In this document: piece after piece, positions 2,286 through 6,228 of the stretch
Layout: each line of letters begins with the position of its first letter
Numbering within the stretch: the first letter of the stretch is position 1
Virus record (IMG/VR): IMGVR_UViG_3300046820_002568
Coordinates: 1 to 64,000 of that record
Source: a virus
Direction: 5' to 3' (one strand)
Length of the DNA stretch: 64,000 nucleotides
Made by a program: the position numbers and the translations under genes
The notes under the pieces: model-generated
The model's input: only the letters and a program-made list of their open reading frames with translations
Database searches by the model: none
What the model was told of the DNA's origin: nothing

Positions 2286-2517
2286 CAAATTTAAGTCAAA
2301 ATTTTCAATCTGTCAAATTTTTCTTAAACTTTTTTTTGAGATTCGAGACTTGTATCTTAATCGTTCTCCGTCTCAAATCTTTTACAAATATACGGCTAAT
2401 TTTTCAATCTGCCAAATTTATTTGTATTTTTTTTTAGATTTAACTTTCCGAGTATCTTTCATCACCTATAGGTGTCAAATCTTTTACAAATATACAACTA
2501 TTTTCTTAAAAATCAAA
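2286..2517 (-). promoter_or_regulatory. three tandem Bacteroidetes-type promoters (~100-bp period)
   Basis: TTTG-N20-TAAATTTG (2286-2317), TTTG-N20-TATATTTG (2385-2416), TTTG-N19-TATATTTG (2487-2517). Confidence 0.8.
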
Positions 2518-2904
2518 AATTATTTTACAAATAAAATCTTTTAAACTTTTATCCATATTAAGTTTTAACATTTCTTTTTTAGTATAGTATCCACATTCTG
2601 TATGTTCAAATCCATCTTCAGCATGCGATAAATTTGGTTCAATTTCATCATTAACCTCAAACAAATAAATGTTAAGTACATTCTTTAGTTTTCCAGACTT
2701 ATATCTTTTAATCTTACCCAAATACTTTATAGGTTCAACTATTTCTAGGTTTGTCTCCTCATAAAATTCTCTATAAGCCGCATCTTTAGGGTCTTCATTT
2801 TCTTCAACTCCCCCCATTGGTATTGCCCATTTTCCGCTATCCGACCTTTGACAAAGAAGTACTCTGTCTTCAAATTTTACTATAACACCTGAACTTTCTT
2901 TCAT
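2506..2904 (-). CDS. NUDIX hydrolase
   Basis: Nudix box GGVEENEDPKDAAYREFYEETNL. Confidence 0.9.
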   Translation of the reverse strand: MKESSGVIVKFEDRVLLCQRSDSGKWAIPMGGVEENEDPKDAAYREFYEETNLEIVEPIKYLGKIKRYKSGKLKNVLNIYLFEVNDEIEPNLSHAEDGFEHTECGYYTKKEMLKLNMDKSLKDFICKIIFDF

Positions 2905-2909
2905 AATTG

Positions 2910-2923
2910 ATATTTATAAATAT
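2910..2923. promoter_or_regulatory. palindromic bidirectional putative late promoter
   Basis: ATATTTATAAATAT palindrome in the 17-bp gap between divergent ATGs at 2904 and 2922. Confidence 0.6.
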
Positions 2924-3278
2924 GTTTGTAACTATAAACGACAATGTTTTTAAAGTCAAAGTCTGTAATTCAGCAAAAGAAAAAGCCGAAGGTATGATGG
3001 GCAAAAAGTTCGAGGGCTTTGAGGGGATGTTGTTTTTTATGGGTGAGGATTATCATTGTTTTTATATGAAGAACTGTATAATCCCGTTAGATATTATTCT
3101 AATTGATAAAGATTTCTCTGTTCAGACAATTTTTGATAATTGTCTTCCTTGCGGAACAGATGATAATTGCACTCAGTACTGTGGTGAGGCAAAATATGTT
3201 TTGGAAATTGAAGGTGGTTCATGCGAGTCTCTTGGAATCTTAGAAGGAGATAAATGCATGTTTACTTTTGAATTTTAA
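2922..3278 (+). CDS. DUF192 family protein
   Basis: GMM..GMLF..FYMKNCIIPLDIILID..YVLEIEGG signature; start moved to ATG 2922. Confidence 0.85.
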   Translation: MFVTINDNVFKVKVCNSAKEKAEGMMGKKFEGFEGMLFFMGEDYHCFYMKNCIIPLDIILIDKDFSVQTIFDNCLPCGTDDNCTQYCGEAKYVLEIEGGSCESLGILEGDKCMFTFEF

Positions 3279-3302: not shown

Positions 3303-3869
3303 ATGAAAACTAAAATTATATACTCTTTTTTATTTATTTTACTTTGTGTAAGTGTAATTGCTTTCAACGCAAAAACTGAAACCACTTGGAGCAAATATTA
3401 TGAACTTGGTAAGGATGAAGGAGCAATTCCCTCTTACAGGATGTTTTACTTAATTGAGACTTACTCAGATAGTTTTGGTGTTCCAAAGCATATTGCATAT
3501 AATGTAGCATTTAAAGAGACAACATATAGGGGTCCTTTGGATACTACATATAATCCTTATAGAACTTCAAATGCCGGAGCTGTTGGAGCGATGCAAATTA
3601 TGCCAAGATATGCATCTTACTTTGCCGGTTTTAATGTATCAAGAAAACAAGTTATGAATGATTTAGAGCTCAATGTTTGGTTATCAATGAAGATTCTTGC
3701 AAAACATTATAAAACCTATAACAACTGGGCTTTGGCTTGTGGGGCATACAATACAGGTAAACCAGTTTTGAATGGTTACGCAAAGTATTGCGGAAGTACC
3801 AAAGATTTTACTAATCAGTGGGTTGGTCCGGATTCTTTGAAGACTCAATTTTCTCTTGCAAAACTCTGA
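3303..3869 (+). CDS. lytic transglycosylase (SLT) with N-terminal signal/anchor
   Basis: Catalytic KET, SNAGAVGAMQIMP and AYNTG motifs; hydrophobic N-terminus; TTTG-N19-TAACTTTG promoter at 3267-3297. Confidence 0.85.
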   Translation: MKTKIIYSFLFILLCVSVIAFNAKTETTWSKYYELGKDEGAIPSYRMFYLIETYSDSFGVPKHIAYNVAFKETTYRGPLDTTYNPYRTSNAGAVGAMQIMPRYASYFAGFNVSRKQVMNDLELNVWLSMKILAKHYKTYNNWALACGAYNTGKPVLNGYAKYCGSTKDFTNQWVGPDSLKTQFSLAKL

Positions 3870-5250
3870 CGAATTCTGTCTGTAACATCTTCAAGAATTT
3901 AATATAAGCCGAATCCTCTTTGTTTGGGTCATACTTATATTTCCCTTTTGGTGGTCTGCTTGACCTTCCAAAGTAATTAAGCCCTGAGATATTTGTAATA
4001 CACTTATGTCCTCCACTGTTTGCTTGGATTATATCCCAAGCTGGAATCTGAATACTATCAAGTTTTTCAAAATCCTCCTCAGAAAGTTCTGAAGTTGGTT
4101 TTGCCATGAGAGCCTTTATCTCCATAAGATACTTTGCCCCATCTTTCATATCCAAAAACTTCTCTCCATAAATTGCCGTGAAATCTTTAAATGTAAAACC
4201 CACCGAACCTTCTTTAGCCGCAGTTTCAGAAATATATTTAATCGTAGAAAGTGGAACCTTTCTATCTTTGAGTTGTTTTTCCCACTTACCAAGTACCTCT
4301 TGGGCAATCTCACCAAGATTAACACCCTTTAGTTCTCTTTCTTTTTTGAATGGATTACAAGAAGCCTGAAGTAATCCTAAAGGCCAAGCAATTACTAAAA
4401 AGTCTGCCTCAGGATTGTTCTTAAATGGAGTATATCTATCATAAGAACCTGGTTTTGTCATTACTCCTCCACCATATTGAACAATAATATTACCCTTAAC
4501 TTCAGGGTATTCTTTCATCTTTTCAACATAAGCTTCTTTGTTCTTTTCAAGAGCTTCAAATCCGGCATATCCTTCATCTTCCATTATCTCCCTTATTTTA
4601 AGGAATAAATTTAAAAGAGAAGGTCTTGACTCCATAACCAGTCTTTCCAAGAAATTTGGTTTGTTTTTGAACGCCAGAAGTAATTTGTTTGTTACAAGTC
4701 CGAGCATCATTCTATTCCTTTTAGCTGAAGAATCTTTATCAAACTTATAAATGTAATTCATCACAATTTCAGGTGTGATTTCATTCTTTGCAAAATCGGC
4801 ACTGTCCACCATTGAAATTGTTGCAACATCTTCTGTTGGAAATAAATCTGACTTTGGTATAATCTGAGAAAGTGTCTCCACATTTGACCTTGACTGTCTA
4901 AATGATTTTGAACCAGTTTCTTCAGCTCCAGCCTGTCTGTCGTGGTGGTCCGTATGAATTATAAACATTGGTTTACCGTGAGCAAAGTCAACAAGGACTG
5001 GCATCACTTCACCATTTGCGTCGGCTTTTTTAACTGCAAATTCCCTGTCACCATATTGTATTACTTCAGTGTCAACAACTTCAATTCCGTTTGACTGAAG
5101 ATAATCTCTCATTGCTATTGCGGTAGTTACTCCGTCAAGCTAAAGGTCCTGGTGAAAGTAGATTTTCGCTTTTTTGTAGCGATTCGCGAGAGATTTAATA
5201 TCTCTCAATCCACTTTCTACCAGGACTATATTGTTTTTTCTGGAAGTCAT
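3811..5250 (-). CDS. DHH-family phosphoesterase interrupted by in-frame TAG (5140-5142); candidate translational bypass, 477 aa
   Basis: Frame from ATG 5250 reads ...KIYFHQDL*LDGVTTAIAMRDY; downstream VLVDFAH, HTDHHD and SGGH motifs. Confidence 0.8.
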
Positions 5251-5254
5251 TAAT

Positions 5255-6157
5255 TTATTTTTTAAATAAATACTTAGTTAATTGTATTAATTCATTTATT
5301 TCTATAGAACATTTAGTTTGTTTAGAACAATTTTCATACTCAGATATTATTTCTAAATTTTCTTTAGCCGCCAATATTTCAGGTAATATTTTGTTTTTGA
5401 ATCCTTCGTGAATACTATATTTATGGTCTATATGATAATATCCCCTACCTATTTTTAAATTTTCAGGATTTATAACTTCTTTATATTTTTTATAATTTTT
5501 GGCAGTAATCATTCTCACCTTTTTTTTGAAATTTTCATATTCTATAATTTCTTCCTCGGTTAAGTAAATTTGTATTGACTCATAAAAACATTTTTCACAT
5601 ATAAATTTTTTACCTTTTTTGTTAAAATTTACATATGTTTTATTACTAATGTGACCATTTTCACATTCTACAGTAAATTTACTATTCTTACCATTAATTT
5701 CTGAAATTGATATTAATTTAAATTTTTTTTCTCTTACTACCTTGTTTAAAAATTCTTCATTAATTATATTTTGATTTTTTTTAATTTTAACCTCTTCTCT
5801 TTTGGATGGGTTTAAATCTCCCTTCCATTTTTGGGAATATAATTTTTTTAATCTACTTACTTCATCTTCACCTAAAAAATCATCCCACTTTCTATTATCC
5901 CCATATCTTCCATTTCCTTCACCAGTACACTGACAAGGTCTACATATTTGAATATCTTTAGACATTTTGTCTTTAACTAAATGACAAGCACTAATAGAAT
6001 GTAATTTATCAGGTGTTTTACAGTTCGGATTATCACAAGACCATATAACCTTTAACGCAGAATTTCCCTTCTTTTCTTTCAGTATTTCCAAGTCAACTAA
6101 CTCATAGTAGACAGGCTTTGATTTTAAATAATAGGGCTTCCAAACAGACTTAATCAT
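5255..6157 (-). CDS. free-standing HNH homing endonuclease with Zn-finger/NUMOD-like region
   Basis: C-terminal YHIDHKYS...ENLEIISEYENCSK HNH core; CxxC clusters; very AT-rich. Confidence 0.75.
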   Translation of the reverse strand: MIKSVWKPYYLKSKPVYYELVDLEILKEKKGNSALKVIWSCDNPNCKTPDKLHSISACHLVKDKMSKDIQICRPCQCTGEGNGRYGDNRKWDDFLGEDEVSRLKKLYSQKWKGDLNPSKREEVKIKKNQNIINEEFLNKVVREKKFKLISISEINGKNSKFTVECENGHISNKTYVNFNKKGKKFICEKCFYESIQIYLTEEEIIEYENFKKKVRMITAKNYKKYKEVINPENLKIGRGYYHIDHKYSIHEGFKNKILPEILAAKENLEIISEYENCSKQTKCSIEINELIQLTKYLFKK

Positions 6158-6228
6158 ACAACTAATATATTATATAAATATATCATTGTAAGTAAAAATC
6201 AATCTAATTCTTTATGAAAATTAAAAAA

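Follow-up and report, generated by a model that had tools for sequence, protein, structure and literature searches.

To our knowledge, programmed translational bypassing is well established in very few systems, namely gene 60 of phage T4 and its relatives, the byps of yeast mitochondria and probably phage Hau3. The byps of Magnusiomyces are mitochondrial, occur in many genes, comprise longer inserts than the locus described here and involve unassigned codons instead of stops. What they share with this locus is that mobile inserts are neutralised by a matched-codon bypass (PMC5009743; PMC11194080). The terminase bypass of Streptomyces phage Hau3 also resembles it in the shortness of its gap within a conserved motif (10 nt, or 7 nt in the case of a prophage), its slow A-site codon and a proposed 5′ stem, but is triggered by a hungry UUA sense codon, takes off from Gly, is out of frame and has a proposed regulatory role; no endonuclease is reported in the part of that paper available to us (PMC10732093). 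The MobA homing-endonuclease element harbours the bypass of T4 gene 60 (Bonocora 2011, as cited in PMC5009743); its insert gives protection from nicking, and its endonuclease has frequently been lost (PMC5009743; bioRxiv 2022.08.31.505936; PMC11194080). Synthetic stop-hops in E. coli have a codon-stop-codon arrangement in which nine nucleotides give one amino acid (Weiss, Dunn, Atkins, Gesteland 1987, as described in PMC5009743 and bioRxiv 2024.12.09.627546); they are low-level, unstimulated and artificial. Natural in-frame stop hopping was not known as of 2016 (PMC5009743), and our literature search, which did not cover subscription journals, found no later report of it.

The window analyzed here is a 64,000-nt stretch of viral DNA (positions 1 to 64,000 of IMG/VR record IMGVR_UViG_3300046820_002568). 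On its minus strand, positions 5148-5131 read GAC CTT TAG CTT GAC GGA within motif I of a DHH phosphoesterase gene. The original prediction was that CUU-UAG-CUU in this catalytic motif, in the frame opening at ATG 5250, is a stop-hop, and both codons and coordinates were confirmed. From this ATG, 36 open codons are followed by the TAG stop and then by 442 codons up to a TAG at 3813-3811. The predicted 6-nt skip indeed restores HQDLDG with one Leu when translated, giving a protein of 35 + 1 + 441 = 477 amino acids. We consider it likely that this arrangement is a programmed short translational bypass (stop-hop) carried by a mobile homing cassette, with the hop and the homing steps inferred in the absence of read, proteomic or reporter data. 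The prediction had overlooked the RNA three-way junction on the 5′ side, the HNH-like endonuclease gene upstream and the mobility of the cassette. The features are compiled in the following table.

Features of the interrupted DHH locus in the window
Feature	Position	Strand	Remarks
Take-off codon CUU	5143..5145	minus	CTT, CTG or CTC in 50/50 alleles
A-site stop UAG, next base C	5140..5142	minus	stop in 50/50 alleles, never a sense codon
Landing codon CUU	5137..5139	minus	CTT, CTG or CTA in 50/50 alleles, directly before GAY GG at every gap length
Codons flanking CTT-TAG-CTT	GAC 5148-5146 (before), GAC 5136-5134 (after)	minus	
5′ part of the DHH gene contributed by the cassette (36 codons; last residues ...IYFHQDL)	5143..5250	minus	N-terminal helix, strand β1, first motif I Asp
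Body of the DHH/DHHA1-fold phosphoesterase (DG of motif I, DFAH, DHH, DSA, SGGH)	3811..5136	minus	only copy in the 140-kb contig
Coding RNA three-way junction (predicted)	5146..5226	minus	closing point is the Asp codon directly preceding take-off; z -6.2
Long stem P1, 19 bp	5226-5207 with 5164-5146	minus	predicted fold
Inner hairpins P2 and P3	5206-5188 (P2), 5182-5166 (P3)	minus	predicted; looser than P1
HNH-like endonuclease gene, free-standing, 300 aa	5255..6157	minus	upstream of the DHH gene; Cys-rich N-terminus, C-terminal HIDH...NL...N
TATTTAT promoter-like motif	5266..5272	minus	within the endonuclease gene, near its end and before the leader ATG; function inferred
Second TATTTAT motif	6174..6180	minus	ahead of the endonuclease gene

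Compared with T4 gene 60 and MobA (PMC5009743; bioRxiv 2022.08.31.505936; PMC11194080), the cassette would work alike, including insert protection and frequent loss of the endonuclease, but is no member of the MobA element. It resides in a DHH phosphoesterase gene instead of the gene for the large subunit of a type II topoisomerase, which is split in T4, whereas the cassette sits at the 5′ end of a gene that is not split in two. The gap is 6 nt (8, 9 or 11 in other alleles) and mostly in frame, compared with ~50 nt in gene 60, and the codons are CUN, read by Leu tRNA, instead of the GGA Gly codons used there for take-off and landing. One large three-way junction ending at the take-off codon is the candidate stimulator and, unlike in gene 60, no take-off (A-site) hairpin is predicted. 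In contrast to the synthetic E. coli stop-hops, with which it would share the conversion of nine nucleotides into one amino acid, the cassette is natural, conserved and coupled to RNA structure.

Several other explanations were rejected. An assembly error is ruled out by the presence of the insert in independent samples. An alternative genetic code is not supported: the ORFs of the contig end in TAA (74), TGA (18) and TAG (10), and all three stops are used at the site. A prfB-like +1 frameshift at CUU-UGA-C was dismissed as well, because the +1 frame of the window closes within a few codons and, in alleles with a longer gap, such a shift leaves motif I unrestored. The contig contains no second intact copy of the DHH gene and no further stop-hop; by appearance, three other matched joints are ordinary gene junctions or spurious frames.

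A homologue search recovered more than 4000 relatives of the encoded protein. All 111 of the top 120 homologues that include motif I carry one residue between its two Asp residues, and the contiguous H[QM]DLDG expected from the original prediction is found in each. Pfam recognizes DHH in homologues with E values of 7e-6 to 1e-3, under the gathering score. The structure model of an intact homologue (P0001, 94% identical; pLDDT 76), in which residues 22-27 form β1, overwhelmingly matches the DHH family in Foldseek, with PggH, RecJ, RecJ-Cdc45, GdpP and NrnA on top (best E 3e-4). As judged from this model, the protein has a DHH fold. It shares fold and motifs with the DHH/DHHA1 phosphoesterases PggH, RecJ, NrnA and GdpP, but represents a divergent phage clade with 10-13% identity to solved structures; PDB sequence searches returned nothing meaningful for this protein or for the endonuclease. 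The motifs DxD, D, DHH, D and a C-terminal GGH form invariant alignment columns. While DHH, DSA and SGGH are present in all 35 cassette bodies, motif I is complete only after the hop: the segment before the stop supplies β1 and the first Asp, so that motif I is missing from the annotated 433-aa ORF by itself. The genes that closely follow the DHH gene in the window are a Nudix-like, a DUF192 and an SLT transglycosylase gene (2506-3278 and 3303-3869).

The original prediction anticipated other alleles with matched codons around a stop, and these exist. At the motif I site, CUN-stop-(0-5 nt)-CUN was found at 93 loci, representing 50 distinct alleles. The gap is 6 nt in 43 alleles (80 loci from metagenomes and viral contigs), 8 nt in two, 9 nt in two and 11 nt in three, in addition to the divergent allele L220 (11 nt). 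The six-nt class comprises CTT-TGA-CTT (20 alleles), CTT-TAG-CTT (11), CTT-TGA-CTG (7), CTT-TAA-CTT (3) and CTG-TGA-CTT (2). The nine bases of the window recur at locus L018, one of the 80 viral loci first compared, with a body only 68% identical, and at L103 from an independent sample, with a body 97% identical. These counts do not presuppose a stop: one pattern scan left nine bases between D and DG unconstrained, and 35 of its 40 matches in metagenomes were family members, all of them Leu-stop-Leu; viral contigs gave 39 family matches. A second scan without fixed gap length retrieved the 8-nt (CTT TGA CG CTA/CTG), 9-nt (CTC TGA/TAA GGG CTT) and 11-nt (CTT TGA GGGAA CTT; CTT TGA CGGGT CTT) gaps; in every case the sequence continues as an uninterrupted ORF of 435-764 codons. 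The cassette was not found in the collection of prokaryote genomes.

Among the 50 alleles, the stop is TGA in 35, TAG in 11, TAA in 4 and a sense codon in none. On the cassette tree, which is weakly resolved, it changes about seven times, always to another stop, while the take-off codon changes three times and the landing codon five times, all within CUN. The pairs observed are CUU/CUU, CUU/CUG, CUG/CUU, CUU/CUA and CUC/CUU. By established wobble rules, each of them could plausibly be read by one tRNA-Leu. The predicted matching of codons holds in the sense that any CUN pair may share a tRNA, but not in the sense that the two codons are always identical. The classic synthetic example in E. coli is reportedly also Leu-stop-Leu. 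Uninterrupted alleles, by comparison, use TTA or TTG for the motif I Leu in 39 of 49 cases. What stays constant over all four gap lengths, namely Leu codons on both sides of a stop with the second directly before DG, is the signature expected of peptidyl-tRNA take-off and landing. The alleles are, however, related by descent, so that independent events are far fewer than 50, and single synonymous changes of CTT give only CTN, which means that conservation of Leu alone could yield the codon pattern.

A few loci are unusual. The divergent allele (L220:2990-3160) reads HID, CTT TGA CGATG CTT, DG, with the ATG of the gap in the body frame; its P1 is recoded with two compensatory pairs, pairing runs through the gap, and it adjoins a distant endonuclease type. 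In L207 (275-340), which has an endonuclease and a leader, an in-frame deletion has removed motif I together with the 3′ arm of the stem and leaves a 442-aa ORF open, so that motif I may be dispensable at least briefly; this is a single contig and an artefact is possible. L053 (1532-1752) and L054 have an uninterrupted motif and an insertion of ~200 nt after body residue ~40, seen as two tblastn segments.

Upstream of the take-off codon, the coding sequence is predicted to fold into a three-way junction. In 35 cassette variants, the 84 nt before take-off have a mean predicted folding energy of -34.1 kcal/mol, compared with -8.8 kcal/mol in 49 uninterrupted genes. P1 positions are paired to 97.5-97.8% in cassette alleles and to 54% in uninterrupted genes. 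Synonymous variation is suppressed in P1 codons (pS 0.14 vs 0.74). G-C/A-U swaps occur at pairs 13/81 and 7/87, one in 11-13 sequences and the other in three, with two more in the divergent allele. Covariation support in this alignment is real but modest, with one well-populated compensatory pair, because most P1 pairs are invariant. No covariance model for structured RNAs or group I introns in Rfam matched at E<=1. On the 3′ side no strong take-off hairpin is predicted: the fold of this part of the window's allele (-9.0 kcal/mol; mean across alleles -6.4 kcal/mol) leaves take-off codon and stop unpaired.

The stem is absent from uninterrupted genes and was found in all alleles but one, a recombinant-looking, stemless Leu-stop-Leu allele present at L107, L138, L146, L155, L163 and L164. 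In five of these six loci a TAA follows 84 codons downstream of Leu-stop-Leu, and the allele is probably a pseudogene. Loss of the stem together with a second stop is a single event, but one that would be expected if the allele cannot do without the stem. Pairing beyond the Asp codon is predicted to extend over 1.9, 3.1, 2.9 and 7.0 nt for gaps of 6, 8, 9 and 11 nt, respectively. Such longer pairing at longer gaps, predicted for few lineages, fits an mRNA zipper that pushes the ribosome. A zipper of this kind has been proposed for T4 (bioRxiv 2024.12.09.627546). On the strength of these predictions, the three-way junction is a candidate for a conserved cis-acting stimulator, its stimulatory role being inferred.

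The original prediction also stated that the rest of the gene shows no decay. Between the window and L103, body dN/dS is 0.039. In clades consisting only of cassette alleles it amounts to 0.03-0.15 with dS up to 1.8, an estimate that assumes the cassette to be ancestral in those clades, and in pairs of uninterrupted genes to 0.02-0.09. The insertion is therefore not a singleton with relaxed selection downstream, which would have refuted the stop-hop: the alleles recur and the body is under purifying selection. Together with the contiguous HQDLDG of the homologues and the recurrent matched-codon alleles, this supports the stop-hop, an inference made without peptide or reporter data. All 43 six-nt alleles have an open leader. 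With regard to a nascent-peptide signal such as that of T4 gene 60, the leader has a K/R-rich N-terminal extension of 4-5 residues relative to most intact alleles. The codons right after the landing site are conserved even in alleles lacking the first downstream Met (L018, L084, L134/L154).

Directly upstream of the leader lies the gene for a 300-aa protein, whose motif H-x-D-H...N-L...N is invariant among its homologues. Residues ~200-283 match the HNH nicking endonucleases 4h9d (Z 5.1) and 5h0o (Z 4.6) weakly to moderately, whereas searches against Pfam and with Foldseek gave no match, so the HNH assignment, which relies on these structural comparisons, remains weak. The C-terminus is 42% identical to the product of a free-standing Klebsiella phage gene annotated as homing endonuclease. 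No MobA-named entry was among the PHROG and phage matches listed, and no direct alignment to MobA was made. All 21 close homologues of the endonuclease precede an interrupted allele, and 19 of the 43 six-nt alleles retain it. It is probably the mobiliser of the cassette, its nuclease activity and target being inferred. A TATTTAT motif precedes the leader in 40 of 43 six-nt alleles, and in L103 the endonuclease has been lost between the two TATTTAT motifs.

The distribution of the cassette is scattered. Mapping the interruption onto a tree built from 90 bodies takes 12 changes of state, of which well-supported branches force at least seven, and the window and L103 are sister to the uninterrupted L001. 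The body of the window gene is 96% identical to an uninterrupted allele. Between the window and L001, the leaders are 64% and the bodies 84-93% identical, whereas L018 and L081 have leaders 83-90% identical to that of the window and bodies only 68% and 50% identical (mostly 67-84% in another comparison). In L001, nothing separates the upstream DUF5856 gene from the start of the DHH gene, whereas the window has ~1.1 kb, made up of the 300-aa gene and the new leader, between the two. From comparison of these sequences, the cassette is sporadic at a fixed site and is co-inherited with a target-altering flank.

At the same site, uninterrupted DHH genes are preceded by a sister endonuclease subfamily (L021, L068, L208, L210, L211, L213, L218, L219, L227, L228), ~250 aa long where measured and ~30% identical to the product of 5255-6157. 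In several of these DHH genes the N-terminal segment is strongly changed (VIVTHQDLDGVVS is an example), which points to divergence of the target as another homing strategy and to an endonuclease hot spot. The presence of this subfamily before uninterrupted genes also counts against the preferred reading. An unrelated second homing endonuclease gene (phrog_3339/559) lies directly downstream of the DHH gene in L018 (4105-5613).

Four other readings of the locus have to be weighed against the stop-hop. Ribosomes could terminate, release the 36-aa leader and restart beside the stop, the two chains then assembling as a split enzyme comparable to T4 gp39/gp60 or split NrdA. Split phage enzymes adjoining homing endonucleases are known (bioRxiv 2022.08.31.505936), and in five of five 8- and 11-nt alleles a body-frame TTG overlaps the stop, and L220 has an ATG in its gap, so that re-initiation is possible in these alleles. 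Yet ATG, GTG or TTG stands in frame before DG in none of the 42 six-nt and none of the two nine-nt alleles tested; the restart codon would have to be CUU without ever drifting to a canonical start, the split would separate the two metal-binding Asps, and the Leu codon before the stop would have no need to remain CUN. We regard this reading as improbable. Still less probable is that the allele is dead, or that an N-truncated or non-catalytic protein is made from the first downstream Met, with the insert being a selfish knock-out spread by homing. The open ORF of L207 without motif I and the persistence of the L107 pseudogene in six loci speak for this reading, but purifying selection in cassette-only clades equals that on intact genes, amino-acid constraint acts on the leader and on the codons from the landing site to the first Met, and that Met is absent in L018, L084 and L134/L154. 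Moreover, stop identity, Leu flanks and an open leader would have no reason to persist.

Removal of the extra bases at the RNA level, by a micro-intron cut and ligated beside the stem or by polymerase skipping, would give a normal mRNA. A short excision would mend every allele, and the conserved, precisely placed stem ends at the junction; RNA read data are lacking. However, excision would not require the piece to hold a leader-frame stop or the three stop codons to be interchangeable, the gaps have no motif in common beyond CUN-stop, and the Rfam search was negative, so that we give this possibility even less credence. The least credible of the alternatives is readthrough to HQDL-X-LDG. It is compatible with the in-frame allele of the window, and a stop followed by C is a leaky context. 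The 8- and 11-nt gaps are out of frame and exclude readthrough as the general mechanism; in addition, the stop never gives way to a sense codon, intact homologues invariably have one residue between the Asps (111/111), TAG is a normal stop in the genome of the window, and a scan of tRNA clusters from three near-complete cassette genomes revealed no suppressor tRNA.

The preferred reading, a stop-hop on a homing cassette, could proceed as follows. A ribosome would read the 36-codon leader, melting the coding stem, and would stall, holding peptidyl-tRNA-Leu on CUU while the stop occupies the A site. Such a context, in which Asp occupies –2 and C follows the stop, favours termination only weakly. 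In T4, D45 has a role relevant to termination context (bioRxiv 2022.08.31.505936). The stem would re-form on the mRNA leaving the ribosome and draw it forward; the tRNA would release, slide by 6 nt and re-pair at the second CUU, and decoding would restart at GAC. The product would be the 477-aa enzyme with one Leu between the metal-binding Asps, while part of the ribosomes would terminate and yield a 36-aa peptide; the efficiency of the hop is inferred only. At the DNA level, the HNH-like enzyme may cut uninterrupted alleles of co-infecting phages near the conserved motif-I DNA, and repair would copy endonuclease, recoded leader and insert into the cut allele. The insert would then shield the target and leave the protein unchanged, with the endonuclease often lost afterwards.

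The source contig, from a large uncultured phage, is 139,882 nt long, represents a virus record of 48% completeness and uses the standard code. TATTTAT occurs within 45 nt upstream of 28 of its 102 ORFs, often 11-12 nt before the ATG, and SD-like motifs precede only six of 102. Three related phages of 257-318 kb (G001, G002 and G004, the genomes behind L142, L168 and L006) encode ribosomal protein bS21, which was present in three of four related near-complete genomes and was not found in the 48%-complete contig of the window. Few SD-like sites together with bS21 in relatives hint at Bacteroidota-type hosts (PMC9723584). Near-complete cassette-bearing genomes carry tRNA-Leu genes that read CUN (L288:9783-9857, L288:2332-2418, L289:13143-13219 and L291:9630-9716), namely a short (75-77 nt) tRNA-Leu(UAG) without long variable arm and a tRNA-Leu(AAG), both unusual for bacteria. 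It is possible that these are the hopping tRNAs, a function that is inferred.

On balance, and less firmly than the bypass itself, we favour the view that this is a natural and efficient in-frame stop-hop in which a single upstream RNA zipper sets a distance of 6-11 nt, that it is independent of T4 gene 60, and that it provides a second way for a homing endonuclease to hide a protective insert in a catalytic motif. If true, the cassette would be an independent minimal bypass of ~100 nt whose natural alleles differ in stop and codon pair as well as in the lengths of gap and stem. Such variants would make the debated re-pairing of mRNA behind the ribosome directly testable, as a minimal natural allelic series for the model that pairing of exiting mRNA pushes the ribosome. 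The cassette may also be a switch over a phage nucleotide-degrading enzyme. It would further suggest that combining a homing endonuclease with an insert invisible to the ribosome is a recurring strategy, and that gene callers overlook such genes because they cut them down to a catalytically dead ORF.
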